This document shows, one piece after another, positions 41,667 to 58,003 of a DNA stretch of 64,000 bases; position 1 is the first letter of the stretch, and each line of letters opens with the position of its first letter. Source of the stretch: Minisyncoccota bacterium. GTDB taxonomy: Bacteria > Patescibacteriota > Minisyncoccia > Minisyncoccales > JAQTVQ01. Below the pieces are notes generated by a model. That model did no database searches. It worked only from the letters and a program-made list of their open reading frames with translations, and had not been told where the DNA came from. The stretch spans positions 8,820-72,819 of the forward strand of contig JBBABZ010000003.1 of the NCBI GenBank assembly GCA_041657385.1. The letters run 5' to 3'. Both the position numbers and the translations under genes were made by a program.

Positions 41667-41738
41667 GCGGGTGTCGTATAACGGCTATTATGGTTCCTTC
41701 CCAAGGAACAGACGGCGGTCCGACTCCGCTCACCCGCT
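41667..41738 (+). tRNA. tRNA-like element, possible tRNA-Gly(CCC) or pseudo-tRNA abutting recombinase 3' end
   Basis: Acceptor GCGGGTG/CACCCGC, perfect anticodon arm GTTCC-TTCCCAA-GGAAC (U33, CCC, A37), T-arm GGCGG-TCCGACT-CCGCT (T-loop has C55), weak D-arm. It competes with an alternative 11-bp hairpin (GCCCGCCTTCGC/GCGAAGGCGGG). No CCA encoded. Confidence 0.3.
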
Positions 41739-43190
41739 CATAGAGATAAACTCGTGTTTTTTAGACGACAGCGACCACGGTTTTTGCAATGAAATAATGG
41801 GTTTTTGGCCGGCAATAAGGTAGTCCGAGCCGATCTTTTTCAGGAAGTCCCGTTTTCCCTCCAAATTTTCGCTTTCCGCGATGGAATTGGCTTGAAATGC
41901 CTGCAAAATCCACTCTTTGAAGAGTCCGAGCCGAACATTTCCCTTTCGTCCAAAATTTTCTAGCTCCTCGTTAATTTCAACCTTGCGGTTGAGCAGTTTT
42001 TGTTTTTTGGCGACGTACTCTTCGCGGCTGATTGCTTGGTCTAAATAAGAGTCCAAGAGCCTGTTCAGTTTTGCCTCGACGGTTCTTAGTTCGGCTTTTA
42101 AATTTTGGGCGGAAGCGTTGGCGGTAGTGGAAAGCTCTTTGTGATCTTTTTCCCATCGTTTGAGAAAATTATCTTTCCACTCCGCGTTTAAAGCAACTTT
42201 TTGAAAAAGCTTATTCAGCTGTTGTTTTAATTTTTGCTCGCCGATATATTTTTGGCTGCAAACTCTGTTTTTCTTGGTACAGCGATAATAGGTGTAGGCT
42301 TTGCCAGAAGGTTTAACTCTGGTTTCAGCGGTGATCTGGCGGCCGCACTCGCCGCATTTAAACACTCCTCGGAAAGTGTAGGGTTTTAAACTTTTTGCCT
42401 GCGGCTTGCCGTGCTCCCGCATTATGCGCTGCACTTTTTCAAAAAGTTGCTTGGAAATGATCGGCTCGTGATTGCCTTGATATATTTCTCCTTTGAATCG
42501 GAACAGGCCATAGTAAAATGGATTTTTGAGCACATCCTGCAGCTTAGAGAGAGCGATGGCTTTCTTTTTCCTCTGTCCAACTAACCCGAGAGAAAAAGAC
42601 AATTTTTGTAAATTTTCTAAAGTATATTTTCCCGTAGCGTATGCCTCGAAAATTTTTTTAATGATTTCCGCCCTTTGAGGATCTTTAATGATCGTATGAT
42701 GGCGCAATTCATTTAAATATCCGACAGGAGCATAAGCCGGATATTCGCCATTTTTCAATTTTTGCCTTAACCCGCGTTTTACATTCTCGCTCAAATTATC
42801 AATGTAGTATTTTGACTGGCCGAAAGCGATATTAAGCATAAACTTTCCCTGCGGTGTCGGCTCAAACCAGAAAGTAGGGAATTTTAAGCCTTCGATTTTT
42901 CCGGTATCTACGAGATAGATGATCTTCCCTCCGTCAACACTGTTGCGCGCCAGCCTATCGGGATGCCAGCTTAAAATTCCAAAAGGCCCGCCAGATTCTA
43001 TCCTTGCGATCATTTGGTTGAATATGGGCCTGCCCGGAACCTTGGCGGTCTTTGCTTCGATGAATTGATCGGCGATTTCCAGTCCTTCCTTGGCGGCAAA
43101 TTCTTTTAATTCCATCAGCTGGGCTTCAATGCTCAAGACTTGGCGTTCTTCTTCGTCCGTGGATTTTCGAGCGTATAAAAAATATTTCAT
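41730..43190 (-). CDS. large serine recombinase (resolvase N-domain + recombinase domain + zinc ribbon + coiled coil)
   Basis: N-terminus MKYFLYARKSTDEEERQVLSIEAQ (catalytic Ser region), Cys cluster CGECGR...YYRC, C-terminal coiled coil. 486 aa. Confidence 0.9.
   Translation of the reverse strand: MKYFLYARKSTDEEERQVLSIEAQLMELKEFAAKEGLEIADQFIEAKTAKVPGRPIFNQMIARIESGGPFGILSWHPDRLARNSVDGGKIIYLVDTGKIEGLKFPTFWFEPTPQGKFMLNIAFGQSKYYIDNLSENVKRGLRQKLKNGEYPAYAPVGYLNELRHHTIIKDPQRAEIIKKIFEAYATGKYTLENLQKLSFSLGLVGQRKKKAIALSKLQDVLKNPFYYGLFRFKGEIYQGNHEPIISKQLFEKVQRIMREHGKPQAKSLKPYTFRGVFKCGECGRQITAETRVKPSGKAYTYYRCTKKNRVCSQKYIGEQKLKQQLNKLFQKVALNAEWKDNFLKRWEKDHKELSTTANASAQNLKAELRTVEAKLNRLLDSYLDQAISREEYVAKKQKLLNRKVEINEELENFGRKGNVRLGLFKEWILQAFQANSIAESENLEGKRDFLKKIGSDYLIAGQKPIISLQKPWSLSSKKHEFISMSG
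41735..41791. repeat. inverted repeat arm (57 bp, perfect) inside recombinase-1 3' coding end; partner at 43312..43368
   Basis: cgctcatagagataaactcgtgttttttagacgacagcgaccacggtttttgcaatg is the exact reverse complement of 43312..43368. Confidence 0.85.
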
Positions 43191-43311
43191 ATTCCTTTTA
43201 AGAATAAAAAATTAATTTGGCTTGGTGAAAATTTGGAGGGAAAAAATCGTCTTTCGTTTTCAATAAAAACATAATCGGACTTCCATATCGTCGGCCAAAA
43301 ACCTATTATTC

Positions 43312-43368
43312 CATTGCAAAAACCGTGGTCGCTGTCGTCTAAAAAACACGAGTTTATCTCTATGAGCG
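43312..43368. repeat. inverted repeat arm upstream of recombinase-1 start; partner of 41735..41791
   Basis: Exact reverse complement of 41735..41791. Explains spurious ORF 43187..43468. Confidence 0.85.
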
Positions 43369-43466
43369 ATTTATATGAAAAAGTTCGGACTTTCTTCCTT
43401 AACGGGGAGGACTGAAAAGCTGTCTTTTTTCTGTTGTATCTTTTTTGGTTAAAAGGCGCAAATCCC

Positions 43467-43602
43467 ACCCCGACTATTGCTCGTCAGCCCGGGTTTAGCC
43501 TTAAACCCAGTCTTCCTCGCAGACCGCGGCCCTGCTCGGGCAGGTCCGCTCGGATTGGGCCGCCAGCCAACGCATTTTAGCCGCAGGTGGGGGTAAAAAG
43601 GG
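43467..43602. repeat. ~133-bp inverted repeat (left copy) flanking the 17-kb cargo; partner at 60889..61021
   Basis: Reverse complement ~90% identical to 60889..61021. A diverged direct copy lies at ~62786..62930. Confidence 0.8.
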
Positions 43603-43763
43603 GGCTAAAATATAATATAAATCGAAGCCGATAGGCTTCGCCAAAAAATTGAAATAAAGTCGAAAAAGAGCTATCTTGAATAAAAATATAGCTTATTTAT
43701 CTTTGATTAAATTAGCCTAAAAATCAGAAAGGAGCGGCGTTGATGATTTAACAAAACAAAAAC

Positions 43764-45215
43764 ATGTTTGAACAATCATTTAAAAATATAGACAATATTC
43801 TTCATACTGATTCCGGTTGCGCAACAGAGCTTGATTATGTTGAACAAACTTCGTGGATCCTTTTTTTGAAATATCTTGATGATTTGGAAGATACTAAAAA
43901 AACTGAAGCGGCGCTGGCCGGAAAAAAATATGAATATATCTTGTCGCCGGAATATCGTTGGAATGTTTGGGCTTGTCCAAAGAATGGCGGCGGTAAACTG
44001 GACCACGGCAAAGCGTTGGACGGAGATGATCTTAGAGATTTTGTAAATCAAAATCTTTTTTCATATCTTAAAAAATTTAAAGCCGATGAACCGAATACCA
44101 TTGAGTATAAAATCGGAGAAATTTTTTCCGAATTAAAAAATAAAATTTCCAGCGGTTATAAGATGCGGGAAATTTTGAATATTGTTGATGGAATGCATTT
44201 TCGTCTTTACGAAGAGAAACACGAGCTTTCGCATCTCTACGAAGCCAAAATTAAGAATATGGGCAACGCCGGACGAAACGGCGGCGAATATTACACGCCA
44301 CGGCCGCTTATTAAAACCATTGTCAAAGTGGTCGCGCCAAAAATTGGCGACAAGATCTATGACGGAGCTTGCGGCAGCGCGGGATTTTTAGTGGAAGCTT
44401 ATAAATATCTTACAGAGAACCAATCCAAGCTTTCTTCAAGCCAGATGTCGACGCTTCAAAATAAATCGTTTTACGGCAAAGAAATAAAATCCCTCGCTTA
44501 CATCATCGGCATCATGAATATGATCCTGCACGGCATTGAAGCGCCAAATATCAGGCATATGAATACGCTGGCCGAAAACATCAATGACATCCAGGAAAAA
44601 GATCGTTTTGATGTTATTCTGGCAAATCCTCCTTTCGGCGCGGGTATTGGCCGAGAAATTCAGCAAAATTTTCCAATCAAGACCGGCGAAACAGCGTTTC
44701 TTTTTCTGCAACATTTCATCAAAATTCTCAAAGCTGGAGGTAAGGCAGGAATCGTTATTAAAAATACCTTTCTTTCCAACACCGATAATGCCTCGGTGTC
44801 TTTGCGAAAATTGCTTTTAGAAAATTGCAATTTACATACCGTTCTTGACTTACCAGGGGGTGTCTTTGCTGGCGCAGGCGTGAAAACCGTTGTTTTGTTT
44901 TTTGAAAAGGGTGCGCCAACAAAAAAAGTTTGGTTTTACCAGCTCAATCTTAGCCGCAATCTTGGTAAGGGCAGCCCTCTAAAAGAAGCGGATCTGGCGG
45001 AATTTGTGGAGCTACAAAAGACCAAGGCGGATAGTGAGAGCTCGTGGAGCGTTGACACTAAAGATATTGATCAAAATACTTTTGATTTGTCGGTAAAGAA
45101 TCCGACCAAGAGCAATGAAGTGATTTTGCGTGAGCCGAAAGAGATTTTGGATGAGATGAACAAATTAGATAAAGATAGTAGTGAAATTTTGAATAACATT
45201 AAAAGATTTTTATAA
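43764..45215 (+). CDS. hsdM: type I restriction-modification system methyltransferase subunit (HsdM, N6-adenine)
   Basis: 483 aa with HsdM N-domain, SAM motif (DGACGSAGFL) and catalytic NPPFG. Confidence 0.9.
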   Translation: MFEQSFKNIDNILHTDSGCATELDYVEQTSWILFLKYLDDLEDTKKTEAALAGKKYEYILSPEYRWNVWACPKNGGGKLDHGKALDGDDLRDFVNQNLFSYLKKFKADEPNTIEYKIGEIFSELKNKISSGYKMREILNIVDGMHFRLYEEKHELSHLYEAKIKNMGNAGRNGGEYYTPRPLIKTIVKVVAPKIGDKIYDGACGSAGFLVEAYKYLTENQSKLSSSQMSTLQNKSFYGKEIKSLAYIIGIMNMILHGIEAPNIRHMNTLAENINDIQEKDRFDVILANPPFGAGIGREIQQNFPIKTGETAFLFLQHFIKILKAGGKAGIVIKNTFLSNTDNASVSLRKLLLENCNLHTVLDLPGGVFAGAGVKTVVLFFEKGAPTKKVWFYQLNLSRNLGKGSPLKEADLAEFVELQKTKADSESSWSVDTKDIDQNTFDLSVKNPTKSNEVILREPKEILDEMNKLDKDSSEILNNIKRFL

Positions 45216-45218
45216 AAT

Positions 45219-46499
45219 ATGGTTGACAGTGAACAAAAGATTAAGTGTCCTAAATGTGGAGAATCAATTTCAATTGATGATGTTCTAACGCACCAAATTG
45301 AAGAAAAAATTAAAAAGGATTTTGAGGTAACTCAAAAAATAAAAGAGGGAGAATTAGCTCAAAAATCAGAAGATTTAAAAAAACAGGCTGCGGAAATTGC
45401 CGAGAACAAAAAAGATATTGGTTCAATGGTGGCAAAACAAGTAGCCGAACAGATGGGGAAAGAAAGACTGGGGCTTTTTAAAGAAGCGAGAACGGAGGCG
45501 GAAAAAGAACAGAGCGCAAAAACCGTGCTTTTAGAAGAACAATTGAAGAGCAAGGATGAGAAATTGGCACAGGCAACAAAGAATGAAGTGGAGTTACGCA
45601 AAGACAAGATAAAGCTAGAGGAAGATAAGCAGGTATTTGAATTGGAAAAAATACGTCAATTGGAAGAATCAAAGAAGGCAATTATTGAAGAAGCAAACAA
45701 GAAAGCAACAGAAGAGCAACAATATGTTATTGCTCAACTGAAAAAACAGCTTACGGATGCAACAAAAGCCAAAGATGATTTGGCACGTAAACTCGAACAG
45801 GGTTCGCAACAAACACAAGGCGAGGTTTTGGAATTAGAGCTTGAAGAGATTTTGAAAACGGAATTTTCACAAGATGAAATAATCCCCGTACCCAAAGGAG
45901 TAAAGGGCGCTGATGTAATTCATAAAATCATAGATCGTTCCGGCCGTTTATGCGGGCAGATTGTTTGGGAATCGAAAAAGACAAAAGCGTGGAGTGAAGG
46001 CTGGATTCAAAAGCTTAAAGACGACCAAAGACTTATAAAGGCGGATGTGGCGGTAATTGTCTCAATAATATTGCCCGAAGGTGTAAAGGGTTTTGCCCTT
46101 AGAGATGGTGTTTTTGTTTGTGATGTAAAACTGGCAATCAATCTTGCCTCATTATTAAGATATGATTTGCTAAAAGTAGCCGAAGCAAACAGAGCATTGG
46201 CTGGGAAAGAAGAGAAAAAAGACGTGGTTTATGCATATGTAAATAGTACTGAATTTAAACAAAGAATCCAAGCCATTGCGGAAGCGTTTATTGAAATGAA
46301 GAACGATATAGATAAGGAGAAAAGATCATATCAAGCCATTTGGGCAAAGAGAGAAAAACAGGTGCAGCGAGTTATAGACAATACATTTGGAATTTATGGA
46401 GACCTAAAAGGGTTAACTGGTGGAACAATACAAGAAATTAAAATGTTGGAATTAGATGCTGGTGAAATTAGAGTAAATGAAGATGAAAAAAATATTTAA
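45219..46499 (+). CDS. DUF2130-like protein (N-terminal CPKCG zinc ribbon, long coiled coil, C-terminal globular domain) embedded in type I R-M locus
   Basis: KCPKCGESISIDD at the N-terminus, ~200 aa of K/E-rich heptads, and a conserved C-terminal domain. Sits between hsdM and hsdS. Confidence 0.55.
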   Translation: MVDSEQKIKCPKCGESISIDDVLTHQIEEKIKKDFEVTQKIKEGELAQKSEDLKKQAAEIAENKKDIGSMVAKQVAEQMGKERLGLFKEARTEAEKEQSAKTVLLEEQLKSKDEKLAQATKNEVELRKDKIKLEEDKQVFELEKIRQLEESKKAIIEEANKKATEEQQYVIAQLKKQLTDATKAKDDLARKLEQGSQQTQGEVLELELEEILKTEFSQDEIIPVPKGVKGADVIHKIIDRSGRLCGQIVWESKKTKAWSEGWIQKLKDDQRLIKADVAVIVSIILPEGVKGFALRDGVFVCDVKLAINLASLLRYDLLKVAEANRALAGKEEKKDVVYAYVNSTEFKQRIQAIAEAFIEMKNDIDKEKRSYQAIWAKREKQVQRVIDNTFGIYGDLKGLTGGTIQEIKMLELDAGEIRVNEDEKNI

Positions 46500-46517
46500 T
46501 TTTAAAAAAGAGTAATT

Positions 46518-48410
46518 GTGTTTTTATCTAAATTTACTATCTTAAATAATAAAAGTTGTAAAACCATTAATCTTGCTCCGTCAAAAACTGAACCGGAAGT
46601 TTTGATTGGTATTAATGATTGTGGTAAATCAACGATACTCAGATCATTAGATATTTTTTTTGATGAGAAAAAAAGCCTCTATTTTCTTCGAGAAGATCAA
46701 CAAAAAAGTGATTTGTCTAATTCCCCGCTCACTGCGCAAGAATTCAACCATGCAATAAGTGATTTTGGATATGCACCATTTTACAATTATTCAGGAAATG
46801 TTATCGGAATCTTATGTGAATTCGAATTAGAAGAAGCTGATAAAACAGATACCGAATTTCAGGACAGTGCAAAAAATCTGCATTTGAAATGGGCTATCGG
46901 TGATTCCAACAAAATCGTCATTTTGCGTATATTTCATGATAACGCTGTCGCGGGTCCAAACCTAAATGGATATTACTTATTAAATAATGATTACAAAAAA
47001 GATGATAATTTTCTTGAGGCTTGGAATAAAACAAAAGAAGTATTAAAAAAAATTCGTAAAGATTTAGCTATAGCTGATGCGGATGTAACTAATGAAAATG
47101 GCAAAGGACCTTTTAAAAATATTGAAGAAATAAGGGCTATTTATAAAAAAGTAGAAGTTGATTTGGAGCTATCATGGTTTTTATATAAGGACTTCTCAAA
47201 AGATAAAACATTTTTTCCAAGTTTTAAATATCTTGATTGGAATTTTTCCTTGAAAGATTTAGAGGATTTGGCCACCGAAGCCATGAATGAGGTAACAAGT
47301 CCGTTATTAGGAGAAATAAAAAGTTTAGCCTCAACAAAGCAAGTTGAAGCAATTGTGGGAGTAAACAAGAAATTTGAAGAATTGATGGGCAATCTAAAAG
47401 ATGAATTGCCTACAAGCATAAAAAAAATTAGTTCCTCTGTATTTTTTAATGTAAACCAAAAAATTACTGATATAAAATTAACGAAGGAGAATGTTGATGG
47501 GGAGGTGCATATTGATAATCAAGGTGACGGAATAAAAAGACAAATTTGGTTCGCGTTATTAAAATGGCGCAGTAAGCTGCCCGTAAGCGAGATAAAAAGA
47601 AACAAATATATTTGGTGTTTTGACGAGCCGGAAACACATTTGTATCCATCAGCGCAAAGACAGCTTTTTAGCACCTTCCGTGATATGTGCGAAAAAGAGT
47701 TCCAAGTATTATTAAGCACTCACTCCACAGTGTTTATTGATAGAACAAGGATAAACAATATTAACAAAGTCGTTTTAAATAATGGCTATTCCGTAATTAA
47801 TAAAACGGACGATATAGATGATATTTTTGATTGTTTGGGTTTGAAAAATAGCGATTTTCTATTTTTTGATAAATTTCTTGCCGTTGAAGGTCCGACCGAA
47901 TATGAACTAATCCCAAAGCTGTATAAACTAAAATTTGGTAAAACTTTAATTGAAGATGGAATTCAGTTGATAAATTTAAAAGGTAAATCGCAGTGTGAAA
48001 ACCATAAACAAATTTTGGAAGATATTTTGTCAAAATTTAAAAAAGCTGATGACAAGATTTATTATTTATTTGATGCTGATACCAAAGTTACTAGAGGAAC
48101 GAATGTTTGTGTAGTTGGAACAAATGACATAGAGGATTCTATCCCTAACAATATTTGGATTAAATTTGTTAAAGATAATTGTGATATTGATTTGACAGAG
48201 CAAATCTTAGATGACGAGATAAGAGCAAAATTAGACCCTCAAAAGAAATTTTATAAATTACTTCATGATTATATTGCAAATAATGTAGTCAATGATAAAT
48301 ATTTACCATCAAAAGGCAGTGATTCTGGATCAATATTAGCAGGATGCTTTACCAATAAAGAAGAAATACCAACGAGTATTAATGATTTTTTTGATTGTAT
48401 CAATTTGTAA
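46518..48410 (+). CDS. OLD-family (overcoming lysogenization defect) ABC-type ATPase + TOPRIM nuclease
   Basis: Walker A GINDCGKSTILRSL, Walker B/D-loop IWCFDEPETHLYPSAQRQL, H-motif LLSTHS, then TOPRIM (LAVEGPTEYELIP glutamate, YYLFDADTK DxD). Confidence 0.75.
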   Translation: MFLSKFTILNNKSCKTINLAPSKTEPEVLIGINDCGKSTILRSLDIFFDEKKSLYFLREDQQKSDLSNSPLTAQEFNHAISDFGYAPFYNYSGNVIGILCEFELEEADKTDTEFQDSAKNLHLKWAIGDSNKIVILRIFHDNAVAGPNLNGYYLLNNDYKKDDNFLEAWNKTKEVLKKIRKDLAIADADVTNENGKGPFKNIEEIRAIYKKVEVDLELSWFLYKDFSKDKTFFPSFKYLDWNFSLKDLEDLATEAMNEVTSPLLGEIKSLASTKQVEAIVGVNKKFEELMGNLKDELPTSIKKISSSVFFNVNQKITDIKLTKENVDGEVHIDNQGDGIKRQIWFALLKWRSKLPVSEIKRNKYIWCFDEPETHLYPSAQRQLFSTFRDMCEKEFQVLLSTHSTVFIDRTRINNINKVVLNNGYSVINKTDDIDDIFDCLGLKNSDFLFFDKFLAVEGPTEYELIPKLYKLKFGKTLIEDGIQLINLKGKSQCENHKQILEDILSKFKKADDKIYYLFDADTKVTRGTNVCVVGTNDIEDSIPNNIWIKFVKDNCDIDLTEQILDDEIRAKLDPQKKFYKLLHDYIANNVVNDKYLPSKGSDSGSILAGCFTNKEEIPTSINDFFDCINL

Positions 48411-48411
48411 T

Positions 48412-49608
48412 ATGGATAAGAAGAACAAAACTAACTGGCAAATAAAAAAACTTGGCGAGGTTTGTGATTTTGAGGGCGGTTCGCAACCGCCTAAAGTTAA
48501 TTTTATTCACGAACCAAGAAAAGGTTATGTGCGCTTTTTACAAATAAGAGATTTTGGAAGCGATAAACACATTACATATATCCCAGACTCGAAGAAAAAT
48601 AGACACTGCACAGAGGATGATATTTTACTTGGTAGATACGGAGCTTCCGTTGGAAAAATATTGATCAATAAAAAGGGAGCATATAATGTAGCTGTAATGA
48701 AAACATTGCCCAAATACGATCTTTTAGATAAAAAGTATTTCTATTTTTATTTAATTTCAGATGAGTTTCAAAAGCGTTTAAGCAAGGTGGCGGCTAGGTC
48801 AGCACAAGCAGGATTTAGTAAAGATGATATTTATGACTTTCCAGTTGTAACGCCGCCCCTCCCTGAACAACGCCGTATTGTGAAAATTTTGGATGAGGTT
48901 TTCGAGAAGACGGCGAAGGCGAAAGAAAATGCGCAAAAAAATCTGCAAAATGCCAAAGAGCTTTTTGAATCGTATTTGCAGAGTGTTTTTGCTCCTCCTT
49001 CGCTAAAGTTAAGAGCGGACAAGGAACCATCGGGAACGAATTGGAAGGAAAAAAAATTGGGAGAAATCGCATCTTTTTCGCAGGGAATACAAGTTGGGTT
49101 AGAAAAACATTTGACGGAGCCAAAAAAAGATTATGTTAGATTTATCAGGATTGTCGATTACACTCAGGACACAGAAGATATCAGATATATTCCAAATCCT
49201 GGAGATAAATATTTTGTTAATGAGAATGATATCGTAATGGTCCGGTATGGCACACCTGGTTTAATCGGGAGAGGAAAAGCGGGTGTAATTGCCAATAATC
49301 TATTCAAGATAACAATAGATAAAAATTATTTGTTGAACGATTATTTATGTTTTTACCTATCTCAAAAAAATATACAAATTTATTTAAGTACCCGAGGTTC
49401 TGCTACTATGCCTGCATTAAATTTTGGGCAGCTTAAAACAGTAGTTATCAATTTTCCATCATTATCCGAGCAAAAAGCGATTGTTGCCAAACTTGATGCA
49501 CTTTCTACCGAAACTAAAAAATTGGAGGCGATTTATAAACAAAAATTAGCGGATTTAGATGAGCTGAAAAAGTCAGTTCTTAAACGTGCCTTTATTGGTG
49601 ATTTATAA
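48412..49608 (+). CDS. hsdS: type I restriction-modification system specificity subunit (HsdS)
   Basis: Two target-recognition domains separated by conserved coiled-coil regions, repeated at the C-terminus (LDEVFEKTAKAKENAQKNLQNAKELFESYLQ). ATG 48412 abuts the OLD gene stop. Confidence 0.85.
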   Translation: MDKKNKTNWQIKKLGEVCDFEGGSQPPKVNFIHEPRKGYVRFLQIRDFGSDKHITYIPDSKKNRHCTEDDILLGRYGASVGKILINKKGAYNVAVMKTLPKYDLLDKKYFYFYLISDEFQKRLSKVAARSAQAGFSKDDIYDFPVVTPPLPEQRRIVKILDEVFEKTAKAKENAQKNLQNAKELFESYLQSVFAPPSLKLRADKEPSGTNWKEKKLGEIASFSQGIQVGLEKHLTEPKKDYVRFIRIVDYTQDTEDIRYIPNPGDKYFVNENDIVMVRYGTPGLIGRGKAGVIANNLFKITIDKNYLLNDYLCFYLSQKNIQIYLSTRGSATMPALNFGQLKTVVINFPSLSEQKAIVAKLDALSTETKKLEAIYKQKLADLDELKKSVLKRAFIGDL

Positions 49609-49620
49609 TAAACTACATTT

Positions 49621-52011
49621 ATGAACGAATCAGAAACACGAGCCGAATATATTGACCCGAAACTTAAAGCGAGCGGATGGGGCGAAGTTGAGGGATCAAA
49701 AGTCCATCGCGAATTTCGTATTACCGAAGGTAAAATTCAAGCTGGCGGAATGCGGGGCAAGCCGGAAATTGCCGACTATATTTTGGTTTATAAAAACCGT
49801 AAAATTGGCGTGATCGAAGCCAAAGCCGAAAACTTGGAAGCCACTGAAGGTGTAGCGCAAGCCAAAGCGTATGCGCAAAAATTGCAGATTGATTATACTT
49901 ACGCCACCAACGGCAAAGAGATTTACGAAATATCTATGAAAACCGGGCGAGAAGGGATTATCGCCGATTTTCCAACTCCTGATGAATTGTGGAATAAGAC
50001 ATATTCTGACCAAAACGAATGGAAAGAAAAGTTTGCGAGCGTGCCAAACGAGGGCGAATACGGCAAGCGCTATTATCAAGAAATCGCCATCAATAATATT
50101 CTAAACGCTGTAGCGGAAGAAAAAAGCAGAATTCTTTTAACTATGGCAACCGGTACCGGAAAAACTGCTGTAGCTTTTCAGGTCGCCTGGAAACTTTTTC
50201 AAACTCGCTGGAATTTGAAACGCGATGGCGCCCGCCGACCGAGAATTTTATTTTTAGCTGACAGGAATATTTTAGCCGATCAAGCGTTCAACGCTTTTTC
50301 CGCTTTTGATAAAGATGCACTTGTCCGCATTAATCCGTTGGATATTCGCAAAAAGGGCGGAGTCCCGATGAGCGGCAGCGTTTATTTCACAATTTTTCAA
50401 ACTTTTATGAGCGGCCAGGGCGGCAGCCCGTATTTCGGCGATTATCCGGCCGACTTTTTTGATTTTATTATAATTGACGAGTGCCATCGCGGCGGAGCCA
50501 ACGATGAAAGCAATTGGCGGGGGATTTTGGAATATTTTTCACCGGCGGTCCAGCTTGGTCTGACTGCCACGCCAAAACGGGCAGATAATATTGATACTTA
50601 TAAGTATTTTGGCGAACCGGTTTATATTTATTCGCTTAAAGAGGGCGTAAATGATGGTTTTTTAACGCCTTTCAAGGTTAAACGGATCAAAACTACGCTT
50701 GATGATTATGTTTATACTTCCGACGATCAAATCATTGAAGGAGAAGTAGAAGAAGGGAAAATTTATGAAGAACCAGATTTCAATCGGATTATTGTTATTA
50801 AAGAACGCGAAGCCAAAAGAGTTCGCGTATTATTGGACGAAATAAATCAAAACGAAAAGACGATTATATTTTGCGCGACCCAAGATCATGCGTTGGCCGT
50901 TCGTGATTTGGTGAATCAAATGAAGAAAAGCAAAGACCCGAATTATTGCGTGCGCGTAACGGCAAATGATGGCGCCCGAGGCGATCAGTTTTTACGTGAA
51001 TTTCAAGATAACGAAAAAACGATCCCGACAATTCTTACAACATCGCAAAAACTTTCTACTGGCGTTGATGCTCGTAATATTAGAAATATTGTTTTAATGC
51101 GACCGGTAAATTCAATGATTGAGTTCAAACAGATCATTGGCCGCGGAACCAGGCTTTTTGATGGAAAGGAATACTTCACGATTTATGATTTTGTGGATGC
51201 CTATAAACATTTCTCCGATCCGGAATGGGATGGCGAACCGGTCGACGAAATATGCTCAAAGTGCGGGAAAGAACCTTGTATTTGTGAAAAGGAACCTCCT
51301 CAAATATGTTCAATATGCGGGAAAGAACCATGTGAATGCGAAAAACCGCCTAAGCTTTGCCCAATATGCGGCAAACTGCCATGCGAATGTAAAAATCAAC
51401 CAAAGAAAAAATTGAAAATAAAACTGCGTGATGGTAAGGAGCGCGAGATAAAGCATATGATCTCCACTTCTTTTTGGGGTGCCGATGGCAAGCCGATCTC
51501 TATTCAAGAGTTTATGGACAATATGTTTGGTACTATGCCGGAATTTTTCAAAAGCGAAGAAGAGCTGAGAAAGATTTGGTCGAATCCGACAACGCGGAAA
51601 GCGTTTTTAGAAAAAATTGCCGAAGCTGGTTATGGCAAAGACGAATTGGAAACGCTGCAAAAAATGATTGATGCCGAGCAAAGCGATTTGTTTGATGTTT
51701 TGTCATACATATCATTCTTAACTCAGCCAATTTCAAGAGTGCAGCGAGTAGAACAAGCAAAAGACAACATTTTTGAAGGCTTAGAAGAAAAACAAAAAGA
51801 ATTTTTAGATTTTGTTTTATCAAAATACGAACAAAAAGGCGTTGAGGAGCTTGATGAAGAAAAATTACCGATCTTACTAAATTTAAAATATCATTCGCCA
51901 GCTGATGCAATAAACATTCTCGGTGATGTAGAAAACATTCGATCAATTTTCTTCGCCTTTCAGAAAAATTTGTATGCCAAAACGAGCAAGGAGTACGCGC
52001 AGAAGAATTGA
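49621..52011 (+). CDS. hsdR: type I restriction enzyme R subunit (HsdR) with Cys-rich tandem-repeat insertion
   Basis: N-terminal PD-(D/E)xK domain (ADYILVY...VIEAKA) and SF2 helicase motifs (ATGTGKT, DECHR). Near the C-terminus, three ~36-39-nt tandem repeats encode C-x2-CGK-x-PC-x-CE (51243-51400). Confidence 0.9.
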   Translation: MNESETRAEYIDPKLKASGWGEVEGSKVHREFRITEGKIQAGGMRGKPEIADYILVYKNRKIGVIEAKAENLEATEGVAQAKAYAQKLQIDYTYATNGKEIYEISMKTGREGIIADFPTPDELWNKTYSDQNEWKEKFASVPNEGEYGKRYYQEIAINNILNAVAEEKSRILLTMATGTGKTAVAFQVAWKLFQTRWNLKRDGARRPRILFLADRNILADQAFNAFSAFDKDALVRINPLDIRKKGGVPMSGSVYFTIFQTFMSGQGGSPYFGDYPADFFDFIIIDECHRGGANDESNWRGILEYFSPAVQLGLTATPKRADNIDTYKYFGEPVYIYSLKEGVNDGFLTPFKVKRIKTTLDDYVYTSDDQIIEGEVEEGKIYEEPDFNRIIVIKEREAKRVRVLLDEINQNEKTIIFCATQDHALAVRDLVNQMKKSKDPNYCVRVTANDGARGDQFLREFQDNEKTIPTILTTSQKLSTGVDARNIRNIVLMRPVNSMIEFKQIIGRGTRLFDGKEYFTIYDFVDAYKHFSDPEWDGEPVDEICSKCGKEPCICEKEPPQICSICGKEPCECEKPPKLCPICGKLPCECKNQPKKKLKIKLRDGKEREIKHMISTSFWGADGKPISIQEFMDNMFGTMPEFFKSEEELRKIWSNPTTRKAFLEKIAEAGYGKDELETLQKMIDAEQSDLFDVLSYISFLTQPISRVQRVEQAKDNIFEGLEEKQKEFLDFVLSKYEQKGVEELDEEKLPILLNLKYHSPADAINILGDVENIRSIFFAFQKNLYAKTSKEYAQKN

Positions 52012-52128
52012 AGAAATATTATTGGGATAGTTCCTTTAAGGCAATATCCGAAGTAGGGATTTAAAAAGTAGTCTTCGACAAATCTTCTAAAGGTTTCAAA
52101 AAATAATGATTTATTTAATAAGCAAAAC

Positions 52129-52965
52129 ATGGAATTAAGAGACAGGATGCAAGAATTTAATCAACGCTGGAATGTTGAAAATAATGAATCGTATGGTGAG
52201 AGTTTTGCGAAATTTAAGATTCGCATTCTTAATATCTTAAAAAATATAGATAACCAAGTTACGGAAGGCAGCGTAACTTTATTTTGCCAATTGTATGGCA
52301 TACCAGAAAGTTGGGGATCTTATTCAGGGAGACGCAGATTGAGTGCGAACATTATCAATAGGATTAATGGTGAGAACAATGAAGTGGAGTTTTACAGGTT
52401 GCTAGAGGTTATTTTTTCTTTAGATATCCGTAGCCTCGATGGATATGGCGGATGGGAAGAATATAATAAGCGAAGCATCTATAAGGAAGTATGCCAAGCC
52501 ATTGGATTTTCAGATGTGAACCTTGCCACAACCATGACAGAAAAAGGGGAAATAATTTTTTATCCTAAGGGAGAAGAATTGTTAGATAACGAGCTTGTCA
52601 ATTTTGTTTTAAGCTTTTTATCGGTGGAGAGTAACAAACATTTTGAAGAAGCCCTTGGTTTTTATGGCGCCAAAAAATGGGTTAAATGTGCCGAGAGCTT
52701 ACGCCGTTCCCTTGAACAATATTTGCGAAAAAAGTTCAATAATAATATCGGCCTCAAGACGAATATCGTTGAAATCGGGAAAAAGTTAAAGAACCAAAAT
52801 TCGCCAGCGCAGATTAGAAGTATTGTTTCTATAATCTTTGGCCATCTTGATCAGTTTTTTAACGATAATAGCAAACACAATGATGGCGAGTTGGAAGAAT
52901 CTGATGCTGAATTTTTGATTTACCAAACAGCATTACTTATGCGTTATATCGAGAAATATCTCTAA
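52129..52965 (+). CDS. hypothetical protein
   Basis: 278 aa, alpha-helical, no motif recognised. Confidence 0.5.
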   Translation: MELRDRMQEFNQRWNVENNESYGESFAKFKIRILNILKNIDNQVTEGSVTLFCQLYGIPESWGSYSGRRRLSANIINRINGENNEVEFYRLLEVIFSLDIRSLDGYGGWEEYNKRSIYKEVCQAIGFSDVNLATTMTEKGEIIFYPKGEELLDNELVNFVLSFLSVESNKHFEEALGFYGAKKWVKCAESLRRSLEQYLRKKFNNNIGLKTNIVEIGKKLKNQNSPAQIRSIVSIIFGHLDQFFNDNSKHNDGELEESDAEFLIYQTALLMRYIEKYL

Positions 52966-52987
52966 AATCTTAACAGGAACAAATTAC

Positions 52988-53485
52988 GTGAATTTTTTAG
53001 CCGAAGATCTATTAAAAATTAAAACATTGGATCACTCTAAAATTCAAGCGTGGATCAAGCGGTATTTTTATGATTGTGGCTACTATTCCCGAACGGAAAA
53101 GGAAGTTTGGCGGGATAGAAAAGGCCGGATCGATGTGTTCGCCCAAAAGGGGAGCTATACGGTCGGGATCGAAGTCGATCACAGCTCGATCCGGCTGAAC
53201 TCAATTGAAAAGTTGAACGCACTTAATCCGTCTTTGGCGGTTTTTGTTTTAAAGGGGAAAGTTTTCAATTGGGAAAAAACTTATTCTCGTTTCAAATTTT
53301 TAAAGGTGAAATCTTTGATAATCCATTTGCAGACGAAAAGGTACAAGTGGGTCTGTCCCCAAGAGAAAAATTCTTGTAAAATAGACGAAAGTGTGGATAT
53401 TTACAATAAAAAAATACTTTCTAAAATGTGCCAAAATACAGATTCAGAAAATTTGAAAAAAGCCAAACGCCCCTCAAATTCATAA
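52988..53485 (+). CDS. hypothetical protein, possible restriction-endonuclease-like fold
   Basis: 165 aa. GRIDVF...YTVGIEVD could be a D...E-x-D/K nuclease core. Weak. Confidence 0.3.
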   Translation: MNFLAEDLLKIKTLDHSKIQAWIKRYFYDCGYYSRTEKEVWRDRKGRIDVFAQKGSYTVGIEVDHSSIRLNSIEKLNALNPSLAVFVLKGKVFNWEKTYSRFKFLKVKSLIIHLQTKRYKWVCPQEKNSCKIDESVDIYNKKILSKMCQNTDSENLKKAKRPSNS

Positions 53486-54282
53486 TCGGGCCTAAAGATA
53501 TTTTAATACTCCAAGACCTTGCCGCCTATAAGTTTTTAGATTCAAAACATATATTAGCCTTGCATCCGGAAATAAAGGAAAGAAGCCTTCAATCAAGGCT
53601 TCATTTGCTTTTCCACGGAGGATTGGTGGAGCGGCCGCCAAGCCAATTCACATACTTCCAAAAGGCGGCCCATATCGTTTACAGCCTGACCAAGAAAGGA
53701 GCGGAGCTGGTTTCTCAAGATATGGGAGTTTCCGATCAAGTAAAACAGCCCAAAAATATGGGCGTGTCTTTTTTACAGCACTCGCTGATGATCTCCAATT
53801 TCAAAACAATTCTGGAATTGGCCTTAAAAGAAAACGGCCAGTCAAAACTTTCTTTTTGGAGCGAGCCGAAAACCATTGATGTGATCTATTCCGGCGGCGA
53901 AAGGCTGCCAATCGCACCGGACGCGTTTTTCACGATAGAGGATAAGGATTATTTGATGCATTTTTTCCTTGAAGTGGACCGCTCAACGATGGCGCTTGAG
54001 CGGATGGTAAAGAAATTCAAAGGATACTGGGATTGGCGCGCCGAAGGCGGACACAAGCGAAAGCTGAAGATTTCCAATTTCCGCGTGCTGACGGTGGCCT
54101 TAACCGAAGACCGCAAAGAGAATATAAGAAAGATCGCTAGAAAAGCGGATGACAATCAAACCGGCAGCGAAATGTTCTGGTTTGCCTGTGAAAAAGCGTA
54201 TAATTTAGAAAACACCGGAAAGATATTGGATCCCATTTGGAAAACTTCGAAAAATGAAAATTTACACCATATATTGGAATAA
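53428..54282 (+). CDS. replication-relaxation family protein (plasmid/ICE-associated)
   Basis: PIAPDAFFTIEDKDYLMHFFLEVDRSTM matches the Replic_Relax core. The true start is probably internal (N-terminal region overlaps the previous ORF). Confidence 0.55.
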   Translation: MPKYRFRKFEKSQTPLKFIIGPKDILILQDLAAYKFLDSKHILALHPEIKERSLQSRLHLLFHGGLVERPPSQFTYFQKAAHIVYSLTKKGAELVSQDMGVSDQVKQPKNMGVSFLQHSLMISNFKTILELALKENGQSKLSFWSEPKTIDVIYSGGERLPIAPDAFFTIEDKDYLMHFFLEVDRSTMALERMVKKFKGYWDWRAEGGHKRKLKISNFRVLTVALTEDRKENIRKIARKADDNQTGSEMFWFACEKAYNLENTGKILDPIWKTSKNENLHHILE

Positions 54283-54330: not shown

Positions 54331-54837
54331 ATGTTTGCAAGAATAAAACAGGAAGCGATCTTGGAGAGTTGGGGAACTTTGGTCGGATCTGTCAGCGGCC
54401 GGAGCGAGGAATTTTTTAGAAAGACGGGAGAAGCCATAAATAGCTATAAAGTGCCATTTCTTGTAATGGACTATAAGGAAGTTGCTCCCAGTTTTGAAAA
54501 GGGGCTTTTCGGCAAAAAGCGTCCGGCCATCATCGTAACAAACAGAAAAATGCCTGAATATAAGATGTTTATCATGTGCAGGGATTATGGAACGCAACTT
54601 TCGATTTCTTGGTATCTTCTTTCCGCCAGCCCGTTGATGTACGCGATAACGACATTTGCGCAGACCTTAGCGCAAACAAAGAAGCCCATGGATGTATTTC
54701 AACTTGAAGAGCTTTCGTGCTGGACGGCAACCGTCCATCACGCGACAACCGCCGCCTCAAAAGAGATCGCCGAATCGGTTGGCTTCGATTTCTCCAAGGT
54801 TGATCAAAAATCAAGAGGTTTTTTAAATATTTCTTAA
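54331..54837 (+). CDS. hypothetical protein upstream of TraD/VirD4-like ATPase
   Basis: 168 aa. Its stop abuts the ATPase start. Confidence 0.5.
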   Translation: MFARIKQEAILESWGTLVGSVSGRSEEFFRKTGEAINSYKVPFLVMDYKEVAPSFEKGLFGKKRPAIIVTNRKMPEYKMFIMCRDYGTQLSISWYLLSASPLMYAITTFAQTLAQTKKPMDVFQLEELSCWTATVHHATTAASKEIAESVGFDFSKVDQKSRGFLNIS

Positions 54838-54838: not shown

Positions 54839-56383
54839 ATGATTCCAGGCTGGTTGCGCCAATTCTTGGAAAAAGCCAAAGCGGTTTTGAAAAAGATTTG
54901 GGCCATCTTGAATAAGGATATTTTCGTCAAACCGCGTCCGTCAAAACCGGATGCGGCGAATGAAGTGCCTCCAGAAAGGAGGCTGGATTTGGGCTACGCT
55001 TGGGGCGTTGACGAGAAAACGAATATGGAAGGCTTTACCCAGAGAAAAGCGATCTATACGGATTATCGAAAGACGCATTTTTATATAATTGGCGCAACCG
55101 GCACCGGCAAGACCAAGTTTTTGGAGTCGCTCATTATCCAGGACCTCGTGAATGGCGAAGGCTTTGCGGTTATAGATCCGCACGGCGATCTGACCGAGAA
55201 TATCAAGGGTTGGCTGTATCACAAAACGCAAAAAGATTTTCAAAAGGATATTATTTTGATCGAGCCGACTAATCTTGAAAAGACCGTTAGTTTCAACCCC
55301 TTGGAGCCGATACCGGGCATCTCAAGCTCGGAGATCGCCAGCGAGCTGGTGGAAGTGTTTAGAAAGATTTGGATCGATTCCTGGGGCGAGCGGATGGCCG
55401 ATATAATGCGCAACTCTTTGATCGCGCTGGTGGAAAACGGCCTGACCTTGGCCGAATTGCCGCCGTTTTTGACAAATACCGCTTTCCGTAGAAAAGTGAT
55501 GCGTAATGTGAAGAATCCAACCTGCTTGGAACGGCTCGAATATTTCAATTCTTTGCCGCCTTCCACTTGGCGGGAATGGATCGAATCGACCTTGAATAAA
55601 GTAGATGCTTTTCTTTCGGATGCGAGGATCCGTGATATATTCTCTTCGCCTAAAAGTTCTTTCAACCTTCGGGAAATTATGGACAGCGGGAAAATCCTGC
55701 TGGTCAATCTAAGCCGGGGAAGACTGAAAGGCGGAGCCAATCTTTTGGGAGCGCTTCTGGTCAGCAAAATCCAGATGGCCGCTTTTTCCCGTGCCGATAT
55801 GCCGCAAACCAGCCGAAAGCAGTTTTATCTTTACATCGACGAGTTTCAAAATTTTGCCACGGAAAGTTTTGTCGAGATGTTAAGCGAGGCGCGGAAATAC
55901 AAACTTTCCCTGATAATGGCGCACCAGAATTTAAGCCAGCTCCCAAGAACTTTGAAGGATTCTATCCTTGCCAATTGCGGCATTCAAGCCTGTTTTCGCG
56001 TTAATCGTGAAGATGCCCAATTGCTGGCCAAGGAGCTGTTAAGCCCGCTTTACCAGCACCAGCCCGGCTGGGAGCTGAACATCCAGCGCTTGCAGGAACT
56101 GCCGCCGCGGACCTGCTTTGTGGCCAACCGGATGGAAGGCGGGATAATTTATATCTCCACGCCGGACGTGCCTAATCCTTGGGAGCTTATCTGGGGCGAA
56201 GAAGACGGCGAATGGAAGACTTATGACGAGGAAACTTTTCGCAGATTTATGGATGTAATGGGTTACGGTGCCTCTTATTTGCGGGATAGGGCCGAAGTAG
56301 AGGAGGAATATCTGCAAAGGTATACCGAGCTCGTTAAAAGCAAGGAAGGAGAGAATTTCAGGGAAAGAAAAGGCCAAATTTGA
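54839..56383 (+). CDS. TraD/TraG/VirD4-family coupling-protein-like P-loop ATPase (island copy)
   Basis: Walker A GATGTGKT, IDPHGD and Walker B FYLYIDEFQNFAT, the same signature as 9175..11037. Confidence 0.7.
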   Translation: MIPGWLRQFLEKAKAVLKKIWAILNKDIFVKPRPSKPDAANEVPPERRLDLGYAWGVDEKTNMEGFTQRKAIYTDYRKTHFYIIGATGTGKTKFLESLIIQDLVNGEGFAVIDPHGDLTENIKGWLYHKTQKDFQKDIILIEPTNLEKTVSFNPLEPIPGISSSEIASELVEVFRKIWIDSWGERMADIMRNSLIALVENGLTLAELPPFLTNTAFRRKVMRNVKNPTCLERLEYFNSLPPSTWREWIESTLNKVDAFLSDARIRDIFSSPKSSFNLREIMDSGKILLVNLSRGRLKGGANLLGALLVSKIQMAAFSRADMPQTSRKQFYLYIDEFQNFATESFVEMLSEARKYKLSLIMAHQNLSQLPRTLKDSILANCGIQACFRVNREDAQLLAKELLSPLYQHQPGWELNIQRLQELPPRTCFVANRMEGGIIYISTPDVPNPWELIWGEEDGEWKTYDEETFRRFMDVMGYGASYLRDRAEVEEEYLQRYTELVKSKEGENFRERKGQI

Positions 56384-56430: not shown

Positions 56431-57180
56431 ATGGATTTTATAGCTTCAAACTTAATAACTCCGGCCATAATTATTTCTGCGGCCGCCTATCTTACAAGAT
56501 TTTACGGTAAGGTTATCTCAGATCGAAAACCATTTTCTGACGATCGAGATTGGGAGATCGAATTTTCCGGAATTCTTTTTTTTATAACCATGCTCCTCTC
56601 TGTTGTGCCTGGGATTTTTAGCGCTTTAAAAATCGGTTGGCTTTTCCCTTTTGAGTGCCCTATAATTATGATTGTCTTTTTTTCGACGCTTTGGTTATCG
56701 ATTAGTATAGATATTCTTATTGATAAAAACACATATAAAAAGATATACGATATCAAAATTCCATTTATCCAAAATTTATTTAAATCAGCTAAAGATGACA
56801 GGACAAGATTAAAAGAACCCAACGCAAAATTTTGGACCATTAACGAATATGTGATACTTTGGTTTTTCCCATTCTTATATACATATATTTTGACCATCGA
56901 ATACCAGTCTCAAAATATAGAACGGTTATTCTCCGCAGGGCTCCTCGTTTTTTTAAATTCTATTTTAATAGCACTATTCTACTCACTAAGGAGAAATCGG
57001 CCACGGAAAGCTGATATAATTTTTATAAATAGAGAAAGGTCTCTTTTTGATGTGCTGTTATTAAAGGTAAATAATGATAATGTTCGCATTAAGCAGAAAG
57101 AGAAGGTTTCTATTATTAATAAAGACCAAATTGAGAGGATAGAATTACTTCCGATAAAAGATAATGCTAAAAAATATTAG
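56431..57180 (+). CDS. hypothetical polytopic membrane protein
   Basis: 249 aa, at least 5 hydrophobic helices. Confidence 0.5.
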   Translation: MDFIASNLITPAIIISAAAYLTRFYGKVISDRKPFSDDRDWEIEFSGILFFITMLLSVVPGIFSALKIGWLFPFECPIIMIVFFSTLWLSISIDILIDKNTYKKIYDIKIPFIQNLFKSAKDDRTRLKEPNAKFWTINEYVILWFFPFLYTYILTIEYQSQNIERLFSAGLLVFLNSILIALFYSLRRNRPRKADIIFINRERSLFDVLLLKVNNDNVRIKQKEKVSIINKDQIERIELLPIKDNAKKY

Positions 57181-57201
57181 AATTAATTAAAAAAACGATA
57201 A

Positions 57202-57984: not shown

Positions 57985-58003
57985 ATATAAGATCAAAAAT
58001 AAA

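Follow-up and report, generated by a model that had tools for sequence, protein, structure and literature searches.

A DUF2130 protein and an OLD-family nuclease inside a type IB restriction-modification operon on a mobile element of a Candidatus Paceibacterota genome

The interiors of type I restriction-modification (R-M) operons are known to house accessory defence genes, among them PrrC and RloC (PMC2610378), RloAB (PMC10802264) and TgvAB in V. cholerae (PMC11411939). A systematic "guilt-by-embedding" survey validated the fused ABC-ATPase/TOPRIM protein HEC-04, yielded PDC-S06 and found that most embedded systems function outside their host system too (Payne et al. 2024, 10.1101/2024.01.29.577857). 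For BREX, a backup layer has been described in which OLD-ABC modules are combined with TOPRIM or PD-(D/E)XK nucleases (NAR 2026, PMC12839542). Here we describe a locus of this kind in a 64,000-nucleotide stretch of contig JBBABZ010000003.1 (the window), from a genome of Candidatus Paceibacterota in the candidate phyla radiation (CPR). A type IB R-M operon at positions 43764-52011 carries two extra genes between hsdM and hsdS, one for a DUF2130 protein and one for an OLD-family nuclease, and the whole operon is cargo of an integrative mobilisable element at a tRNA-Gly gene. A first-pass annotation of the sequence had called the hsdM-hsdS gap a hotspot for accessory defence genes, a view borne out by the first four reports cited above. 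We put at about 0.6 the probability of the reading developed below, in which a complete type IB operon travels as mobile-element cargo and the two accessory nuclease genes in its hsdM-hsdS gap have roles in a layered defence.

Embedded defence genes and OLD-ABC backup layers are already published, and the locus as a whole is no surprise. What is new is a lead: ABC-ATPase defence effectors, and two type I R-M families, may have in DUF2130 a companion that has been overlooked. In phyla that are very distant from one another, DUF2130 precedes four kinds of ABC-ATPase effector and occupies the hsdM-hsdS gap of two families of type I systems. This positioning of DUF2130 before ABC-ATPase effectors is not described in the literature that we searched, which excludes the ABC ATPase classification of Krishnan et al. 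2020; nor did the texts searched hold any functional literature on DUF2130.

ORF (open reading frame) calling finds exactly five long ORFs in the operon region, all on the plus strand and in the order hsdM, DUF2130, OLD, hsdS and hsdR that had been read from the sequence earlier (Table 1). They are separated, in order, by 3, 18, 1 and 12 nucleotides (nt), and with gaps of 1-18 nt on one strand the five genes almost certainly form one transcript. A promoter and terminator scan of positions 43200-52400 gave 28 versus 27.7 and 13 versus 8.4 predictions in the real and the shuffled sequence, respectively, and is uninformative on transcription units. The stop codon of OLD and the start codon of hsdS had been described as touching; the close spacing is real, and one base lies between them (TAAtATG; TAA at 48408-48410 and ATG, the likely start of hsdS, at 48412). 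If hsdS began instead at an upstream ATG, at 48382, its overlap with the OLD gene would be 29 nt. The G+C fraction at third codon positions is 0.25 in OLD, 0.30 in DUF2130, 0.31 in hsdS and 0.40 in both hsdM and hsdR; the OLD gene is a compositional outlier within the operon.

Judged by their profile matches, HsdM, HsdS and HsdR contain every domain for classical type I methylation and restriction. HsdS has two Methylase_S stretches in the Pfam scan, that is, two target-recognition domains. HsdR scores 827.9 bits (E 9.1e-249) against the EcoAI/FtnUII equivalog NF046051 of NCBIfam, well beyond the cut-off of 550, and consists of the Pfam domains HSDR_N_2, ResIII, Helicase_C and EcoEI_R_C. Inserted between its helicase core and the EcoEI_R_C domain, at residues 543-591, are three tandem Cys4 knuckles; the corresponding DNA (51247-51395) comprises three tandem repeats of 43-54 nt with the in-frame translations ICSKCGKEPCICEK, ICSICGKEPCECEK and LCPICGKLPCECKN. 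This insertion is missing from the HsdR proteins of two related loci, L006 and L100, which at 762-774 amino acids (aa) are 22-34 aa shorter. The HsdR of locus L098 has 797 aa and may also carry it.

The OLD-family protein holds on one polypeptide an ABC ATPase (residues 1 to ~410), a TOPRIM domain (~448-530) and a C-terminal helical region. The family placements proposed in the first-pass annotation for this protein and for its DUF2130 neighbour are both confirmed by hidden Markov model searches. For OLD the matches are AAA_15 (7.8e-35; 121.6 bits, cut-off 32.1), AAA_21 and OLD-like_TOPRIM (8.2e-9; 36.3 bits, cut-off 23.2), and the best PADLOC model is Old (3.4e-38). The complete ABC ATPase and TOPRIM motifs that had been pointed out are real and conserved: across 54 homologues (37-100% identity) and four more distant ones that lie beside other DUF2130 genes, the invariant residues include G31, N33, G36 and K37 of the Walker A motif GINDCGKST, D369-E-P-E372 of the Walker B motif DEPE, Q396 and H402-S403 of the H-loop in the ATPase, and E457-G458 and D519-x-D521 in the TOPRIM domain. 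By sequence, the sole relative in the PDB is 6P74, the class 1 OLD of Thermus scotoductus. An AlphaFold2 model with a pLDDT (predicted local distance difference test) score of 86 retrieves in Foldseek, in this order, 6P74 (E 3.6e-16), GajA (3.6e-15, 8U7I) and the retron-Eco8 OLD. These matches mark the protein as a genuine fused OLD nuclease that stands nearest to class 1.

The earlier description "like class 1 OLD / GajA" holds for the fold and fails for the class 1 context. Class 1 OLDs are defined as lone genes, away from other defence genes (PMC10568477), whereas the window OLD lies inside an R-M operon directly after DUF2130, and its relatives have DUF2130, Hypoth_Ymh, KTSC or UvrD partners. 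As to Gabija and class 2 OLD, the Pfam scan finds no UvrD-type gene (GajB) in the operon or its flanks; with regard to the helical insert of class 2 TOPRIM domains, the whole-fold ranking of 6P74 and GajA is too close to discriminate. As to the PrrC and RloC anticodon nucleases, the window OLD gives no AAA_13 match and its C-terminus is TOPRIM. A PADLOC match to AriA covers the ATPase part alone.

The DUF2130 protein matches PF09903 over profile positions 5-253 of 255 with 211 bits (gathering cut-off 26.7). In 64 members of the family (22-53% identity), the invariant residues are C10, C13, S196, G201, E205, D219, G230, D232, E251, K253 and F346. These comprise one CxxC and a full PD-(D/E)XK signature (E205, D219, D232 and E251-x-K253). 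The AlphaFold2 model (pLDDT 77) has an N-terminal beta-hairpin, a single helix at 19-192, an alpha/beta core at 200-302 and a helical C-terminal region; the core is built of a helix (200-215), three strands (220-223, 233-238 and 244-253), a second helix (260-273) and a last strand (277-282). Its Foldseek matches are weak (best E 4e-3) and are repeatedly PD-(D/E)XK nucleases, namely Bax1, the SPARDA nuclease domain, BamHI, MspJI, Cas4, DdmD and McrC. They agree with Steczkiewicz et al. 2012, who placed DUF2130/COG4487 in the PD-(D/E)XK superfamily with the function given as "unknown", and the Pfam clan assignment does likewise (PMC3424549).

The zinc ribbon proposed for DUF2130 in the first-pass annotation did not survive scrutiny. 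A four-ligand ribbon at the N-terminus was rejected, as C10 and C13 are the sole conserved cysteines there and the second ligand pair is missing. H25 alternates between histidine and arginine among members, and C245 and C301 lie inside the nuclease core and are invariant among close relatives only. The PDB sequence matches of the DUF2130 profile, C2H2 zinc fingers and a coiled coil, all of them designed, are local and were dismissed as spurious; those to the fingers fall on "KCPxCGxS". In the model the CxxC sits at the distal end of the long helix, and this placement would fit an intermolecular zinc hook of the Rad50/RloC type, a concept described in PMC2610378, better than a zinc ribbon. A relaxed Pfam scan (E up to 10) of the C-terminal domain finds no second family, and RmuC is likewise not among its matches. 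DUF2130 matches none of the families of PADLOC v2.0.0 at E <= 0.01, a library that includes HEC and PDC models, and none of NCBIfam. The family itself is sizeable, with 1,471 clusters at 50% identity (E <= 1e-30).

We surveyed the neighbourhoods of 78 DUF2130 loci, one genome per species, drawn from the 80 most query-similar of at least 524 loci. The labels come from our own ORF calls, with neighbours clustered and the cluster representatives scanned with Pfam and PADLOC; many of the contigs are short. Single-seed phmmer and jackhmmer searches missed divergent partners, including the DUF2130 of locus L001 and several TOPRIM domains, which Pfam recovered. An hsdM gene lies within four genes upstream in 20 of the 78 loci, and 13 of these have hsdS and/or hsdR downstream. 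The first or second gene after DUF2130 encodes an AAA_15/OLD-type ATPase in 13 loci, with the TOPRIM domain confirmed in L011, L012, L019, L022, L023 and L070, and an AAA_13 ATPase, labelled PDC-S06 by PADLOC, follows DUF2130 in five loci and in L026. Where at least two downstream genes are readable, an ABC-ATPase gene follows in 19 of 66 loci. DUF2130 is directly followed by hsdS in five loci (L048, L050, L052, L062 and L066). Further neighbours are Fic, RhuM, Bro-N, HTH-M78, type III-like Res/Mod with Schlafen, a DUF4011 helicase-REase and Cas12a, the last being a Cas12a (Cpf1) gene at L053 11281-15066, directly downstream of DUF2130 on a Saccharibacteria contig. Small KTSC (PF13619) proteins stand beside OLD in L001 (7786-7998) and L007 (9943-10365) and beside DUF2130 in L084.

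The layout of the window, hsdM-DUF2130-(optional 107-aa ORF)-OLD-hsdS-hsdR, is found in three further unrelated flanks (L006/L011/L089, L098/L099 and L100/L101), where OLD is 84-87% identical to the window protein. Because it recurs in four independent genomic contexts, the window included, the five-gene arrangement is not a product of chance. An ORF of 107-111 aa directly before OLD was seen at L006 (9674-9997), L098 (4328-4651), L004 (7665-7994) and L008 (3269-3604); the L006 and L004 versions share "FL.AIDQ.KI..KF.S.EKG", and that of L008 has a faint WYL-like match (E 0.029). A remnant of it was sought in the window and is absent, the DUF2130-OLD gap being too short; L100 is alike (~18 nt). 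The small ORF may be a regulator or partner of the OLD clade to which the window protein belongs.

One explanation of this recurrence is that DUF2130 and OLD form an obligate two-gene machine, comparable to GajA-GajB or AriA-AriB, which would guard the R-M system and kill the cell once restriction is inhibited. The two genes keep the same order and strand in the type I gaps of eight loci (the window, L006, L098, L100, L040, L012, L019 and L022). Outside type I loci they are found at three more. At L001, downstream of a fused nuclease-methylase and an S subunit, a DUF2130 gene (24% identity; PF09903 1.9e-87) is followed by a KTSC gene and then by an OLD 62% identical to that of the window; at L023 the pair stands alone; and at L095, an Aliarcobacter plasmid locus, a Gabija pair (GajA 2e-190 and UvrD) comes after DUF2130 (36% identity) and before genes for a methyltransferase, RhuM and a DEAD helicase. 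The recurrence spans identities of 24-86% for DUF2130 and 20-85% for OLD. However, the partners are freely exchanged: L012 combines a DUF2130 of 85% identity with an OLD of 23%, and L001 does the reverse. About half of the contexts of the window OLD clade are without DUF2130, with Hypoth_Ymh, KTSC or UvrD instead, and a full OLD is present in fewer than 10% of the surveyed DUF2130 loci. Single-gene class 1 OLDs are reported to defend alone (PMC12392090, PMC13261556). We regard an obligate machine as quite improbable, and of the type I-associated pair suggested at the outset, the recurrence in type I gaps stands and the fixed pairing does not, as partners are swapped and each gene occurs without the other.

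The contexts of OLD illustrate the point. Members of the window OLD clade (at least 70% identity) lie within or next to a type I locus in almost every case, and DUF2130 is present in about half of these contexts. Arrangements without it include hsdM-OLD-Hypoth_Ymh-hsdS-hsdR (L091 and L102), hsdM-S-R-YgjP-OLD-Hypoth_Ymh (L092/L093) and, at L090, OLD with a HARE-HTH/PDDEXK_5 protein; OLD relatives of 56-63% identity, again without DUF2130, occur with KTSC in a recombinase-bearing element (L007) and with UvrD (L008). The Hypoth_Ymh proteins (PF09509), of ~265-285 aa, directly follow OLD at L091 (2733-3584), L092 (11898-12701) and L102 (3202-3999) and give a weak PADLOC match to PD-Lambda-3_B (1.9e-9). 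The arrangement points to Hypoth_Ymh as an alternative OLD partner.

The company kept by DUF2130 is different. Other DUF2130-carrying loci whose hsdM is 68-89% identical to that of the window (and hsdR 71-84%) have a DUF2130 that is 57-86% identical, and this type IB backbone spans hosts of Patescibacteria, Legionellales, Brocadiaceae and Margulisbacteria. The hsdS genes of the related operons are merely 28-38% identical, which is expected for variable recognition domains. The gene after DUF2130 in the type IB backbone varies: it may belong to the window OLD clade (85%), to an unrelated Old clade (22-24%), to PDC-S06 or to Bro-N. In a second type I family (hsdM ~25%, HsdR ~994 aa) a DUF2130 of 51-53% identity lies directly between the M and S genes, without an ATPase. 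The best-supported description of these loci is that DUF2130 stays with the R-M backbone family and that the position behind it is a swappable slot for ABC-ATPase effectors, taken in one locus or another by OLDs of several clades, by GajA-GajB, by PDC-S06 or by proteins with an ATPase alone.

Such constancy could mean that DUF2130 serves the type I enzyme as an accessory subunit or regulator, for example by processing translocation-stalled DNA or by controlling restriction alleviation, and that OLD is an unrelated insertion. The identity of DUF2130 does follow the R-M family, with a rank correlation against hsdM of rho 0.83 overall; two type I families have it in their hsdM-hsdS gap, the second with no other gene there; and it is conserved across phyla far better than hsdS or OLD. 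The two R-M families drive the overall correlation, however, and the type IB lineage taken by itself yields no significant one (rho 0.39, p 0.21). As many as 58 of the 78 DUF2130 loci are without hsdM within four genes, and the gene is also found by type III-like (L013) and type IIG-like (L001) systems and by Cas12a (L053), and alone on plasmids. To our knowledge, classical type I enzymes need no DUF2130-like subunit. We regard such a subunit role as quite improbable.

In the reading that we prefer, the R-M enzyme would be the first line against unmethylated DNA, and OLD a second, semi-autonomous line, acting as an ATP-regulated DNA nickase or exonuclease. OLD would fire if infection proceeds despite restriction, be it in response to anti-restriction or anti-RecBCD phage proteins or to abnormal DNA ends. 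Analogies for such a trigger are P2 Old with RecBCD inhibitors, PARIS and Gabija with Ocr, and PrrC with Stp (10.1101/2024.01.29.577857, PMC10802264, PMC12839542, PMC2610378). The DUF2130 protein would be a DNA nuclease that depends on Mg and sits on a coiled-coil stalk. It would probably dimerise via a zinc shared at its CxxC, and it would act on the same DNA substrates, either as a co-effector or as a DNA-end sensor for whichever ABC-ATPase effector follows. Embedding would give co-regulation and co-transfer with the R-M system. The embedded genes and the R-M enzyme may be functionally coupled; the "R-M-coupled suicide or backup" function suggested in the first-pass annotation is plausible by analogy.

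Several points weigh against this layered defence. The trigger and the targets are drawn by pure analogy, and the class assignment of OLD is loose, class 1 being defined as stand-alone genes. The survey is restricted to the best 80 of at least 524 loci, and its labels draw on our own ORF calls and on Pfam and PADLOC scans of limited number. The identities of DUF2130 and of OLD show no correlation across eight pairs (rho 0.19), and this lack of co-divergence argues against a specific, tight protein-protein interface. A DUF5671 membrane protein is encoded upstream of DUF2130 in six loci (L025, L032, L036, L038, L039 and L043), and an RNase_T/ExoX-like exonuclease downstream in five (L029, L039, L041, L043 and L056), once with an ATPase-only AAA_15 protein in between; this DUF5671-DUF2130-(RNase_T) neighbourhood, seen in several CPR and Bdellovibrionales-type genomes, is unlike a defence island and apparently housekeeping-like. 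Solitary DUF2130 genes (35-38% identity) are also common among the symbiosis and conjugative plasmids of rhizobia, namely L096 (Mesorhizobium pMLa) and 31 plasmids of Bradyrhizobium. Genes for a relaxase, ParA, DUF736 and a zincin-like metallopeptidase of ArdC type lie nearby, and neither an R-M gene nor an ATPase gene adjoins DUF2130 there. Because DUF2130 also occurs alone, in housekeeping-like and in relaxase/ParA neighbourhoods, its core role may be DNA processing rather than defence.

Carried to its conclusion, the last point would make DUF2130, with or without an ATPase or exonuclease, a factor of DNA repair, recombination or plasmid maintenance comparable to RmuC or SbcCD, which mobile elements merely carry. 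The combination of coiled coil, CxxC and nuclease resembles the tethers of DNA repair (zinc hook, PMC2610378); the link with RNase_T/ExoX-like genes is recurrent; solitary copies lie near relaxase and ParA; and DUF2130 is nearly absent from phages (7 of 50,697 records). Against this stand the strong enrichment of DUF2130 beside R-M, Old, GajA, PDC-S06, Fic, RhuM and Cas12a, and its patchy spread, with near-identical copies (66-86%) in distant phyla, as is typical of mobile defence cargo and less so of housekeeping repair genes. We consider a role entirely outside defence very unlikely.

The lack of co-divergence also keeps alive a simpler explanation, in which DUF2130 and OLD are independent hitch-hikers, unrelated single-gene defence or selfish genes in a permissive, co-transferred gap, linked in function neither to one another nor to the R-M enzyme. 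OLD occurs without DUF2130 at L007, L008, L090-L093 and L102, and DUF2130 leads straight into hsdS at the five loci named above; the OLD gene differs in composition; Fic, RhuM, Bro-N and HTH-M78 genes occupy the same gaps; and the general finding that most embedded systems work outside their host system (Payne et al., 10.1101/2024.01.29.577857) is in line with it. What hitch-hiking explains poorly is the order of genes. The 19 of 66 loci in which an ABC-ATPase effector directly follows DUF2130 represent at least four families or clades, a frequency far above chance for a family at one or two copies per genome, and at least seven of the 19 have no detectable type I R-M genes (L023, L029, L035, L047, L064, L065 and L095). 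The order is constant, DUF2130 first and then the ATPase, on the same strand. That this order holds across four effector families and at least seven loci without type I R-M argues against pure coincidence. We regard hitch-hiking as rather unlikely, and the layered defence is the reading that we retain.

A bolder version of the sensor idea takes DUF2130 for a widespread and so far overlooked PD-(D/E)XK nuclease with zinc hook and coiled coil, a generic front-end that would serve as a sensor of DNA ends or of R-M status, or as a co-nuclease, for Old, GajA-GajB, PDC-S06 and ATPase+RNase_T effectors, together forming a split Rad50/Mre11-like machine found preferentially in type I operons. We hold this generalisation to be unlikely; if it were right, many single-gene "Old", "Gabija" and "PDC-S06" annotations would really be multi-gene systems. 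If DUF2130 does cooperate with the effectors that it precedes, Old, Gabija and PDC-S06-type systems would gain an extra component, and the protein could help to explain the regulation of "stand-alone" class 1 OLDs, an open question in the OLD review. The locus would also show genome-poor CPR bacteria stacking defences on one mobile operon.

The element that carries the operon starts at the tRNA-Gly(CCC) gene, just downstream of a LepA gene that is 100% identical to one from a metagenome-assembled Candidatus Paceibacterota genome, and its features follow in the order tRNA-Gly, large serine recombinase, GC-rich repeat X, R-M operon, three ORFs without a family, Replic_Relax protein, coupling protein, further ORFs without a family, inverted copy of X, second serine recombinase and Tsp45I-family endonuclease (Table 1). 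The end of the first recombinase ORF falls within the 3' end of the tRNA gene, and the recombinase is bracketed by 94-nt inverted repeats (41735-41828 and 43275-43368; 94% complementary). The second recombinase (60910-62607) shares 86% aa identity, the orientation and the leader sequence with the first, and is likewise bracketed by ~94-nt inverted repeats (99% complementary) in a module at 60889-63021. Two related recombinase modules thus stand in tandem; behind each come a conserved leader and an R-M cargo of its own, the type I operon in one case and the Tsp45I-type enzyme in the other. Repeat X and its inverted copy are 92-100% complementary and bracket 17.3 kb of cargo, and a diverged direct copy of X follows the second recombinase; the bracketed segment could be invertible, or the repeats could be remnants of att sites or terminal repeats of the recombinase module. 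X belongs to no Rfam family in a scan of the whole window, which found only RNase P RNA and tRNA-Gly. A tRNA-derived att repeat was rejected as the right end of the element: the 3' end of tRNA-Gly has no direct repeat, and in its stead stand a GC-rich repeat in inverted orientation and the second recombinase module.

Eight ORFs of the cargo, of 165-278 aa (52129-53485, 54331-54837 and 56431-60237), have no significant Pfam family; the ORF at 58004-58816 has a marginal Ogg-HhH match below the cut-off. Elsewhere in the window, a class A RNase P RNA at 36920-37416 scores 103.5 against a Rfam gathering score of 100, and it holds sizeable insertions because its 497 nt span a model of 367 positions.

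Table 1. Features of the operon and of the element that carries it, in window coordinates
Feature	Position	Strand	Evidence or remark
tRNA-Gly(CCC), left element boundary	41667-41739	+	ARAGORN, Rfam
Large serine recombinase, 486 aa	41730-43190	-	Pfam Resolvase, Recombinase, Zn_ribbon_recom
GC-rich repeat X, 134 nt, upstream of hsdM	43468-43601		Inverted copy at 60889-61021
hsdM, methyltransferase subunit, 483 aa	43764-45215	+	Pfam N6_Mtase 6e-67, HsdM_N 2e-8; PADLOC MTase_I 2.2e-160
DUF2130 protein, 426 aa	45219-46499	+	PF09903 2.4e-62
OLD-family nuclease, 630 aa, GTG start	46518-48410	+	AAA_15, OLD-like_TOPRIM, PADLOC Old
hsdS, specificity subunit, 398 aa	48412-49608	+	Methylase_S 2.1e-33; full-length PADLOC Specificity_I matches
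hsdR, type IB (EcoAI/FtnUII family), restriction/translocase subunit, 796 aa	49621-52011	+	NCBIfam restrict_EcoAI equivalog
Replic_Relax (relaxase-like) protein	53428-54282	+	Pfam Replic_Relax 3.1e-22
TraG/VirD4-type coupling protein	54839-56383	+	Pfam T4SS-DNA_transf, TrwB_AAD_bind, TraG-D_C
Tsp45I-family type II restriction endonuclease	63022-63810		Family match 1.2e-123; ~190 nt from right window edge

Set beside known systems, the backbone of the operon is that of type IB R-M systems of the EcoAI/EcoEI family, with HsdM, an HsdS of two target-recognition domains and an HsdR that joins an N-terminal nuclease, a superfamily 2 motor and the EcoEI_R_C domain; it differs in the two extra genes between hsdM and hsdS and in the Cys4 insertion of HsdR. 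Of the OLD families, class 1 (P2 Old, the T. scotoductus protein 6P74, V. cholerae OLD and E. coli YbjD) provides the best sequence and fold match in 6P74, and as in that class OLD at the window locus has neither a UvrD helicase gene nor a retron nor a separate TOPRIM gene next to it; the identity to 6P74 is ~15%, however, and GajA is nearly as good by fold. Gabija (GajA-GajB) has the same OLD fold, and a UvrD partner appears only in the relatives at L008 (56% identity) and L095. In the split systems PARIS, RloAB and AbiL the ATPase and the TOPRIM domain are two proteins, whereas the window has both in one ORF.

The DUF2130 protein resembles the zinc-hook coiled coils of Rad50/SbcC and RloC in its invariant CxxC, which lies on a long helical stalk at the end away from a DNA-processing module. 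In those proteins the CxxC lies at the apex of an antiparallel hairpin and the stalk bears an ABC head, whereas in DUF2130 it lies at the N-terminus of a single helix that leads to a PD-(D/E)XK domain; zinc binding and dimerisation of DUF2130 are putative.

PrrC/EcoprrI, RloC and Campylobacter RloAB share with the window an ABC-ATPase effector in a type I hsd locus, proposed to serve as a second line once restriction has been compromised (PMC2610378, PMC10802264). Of these, PrrC and RloC are anticodon RNases and RloAB is a split ATPase/TOPRIM system, whereas the window has a fused OLD and an extra PD-(D/E)XK gene, for which we found no corresponding Campylobacter rlo gene in the literature searched. 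Silencing by the R-M enzyme is hypothetical for the window operon. The candidates of Payne et al. (HEC-04, HEC-01 and PDC-S06) and the OLD-ABC modules of BREX are similar in that they, too, are co-oriented ABC-ATPase/TOPRIM or ABC-ATPase/PD-(D/E)XK modules inside modification-based systems, and the PDC-S06 proteins behind DUF2130 in the sister loci belong to the Payne et al. catalogue itself.

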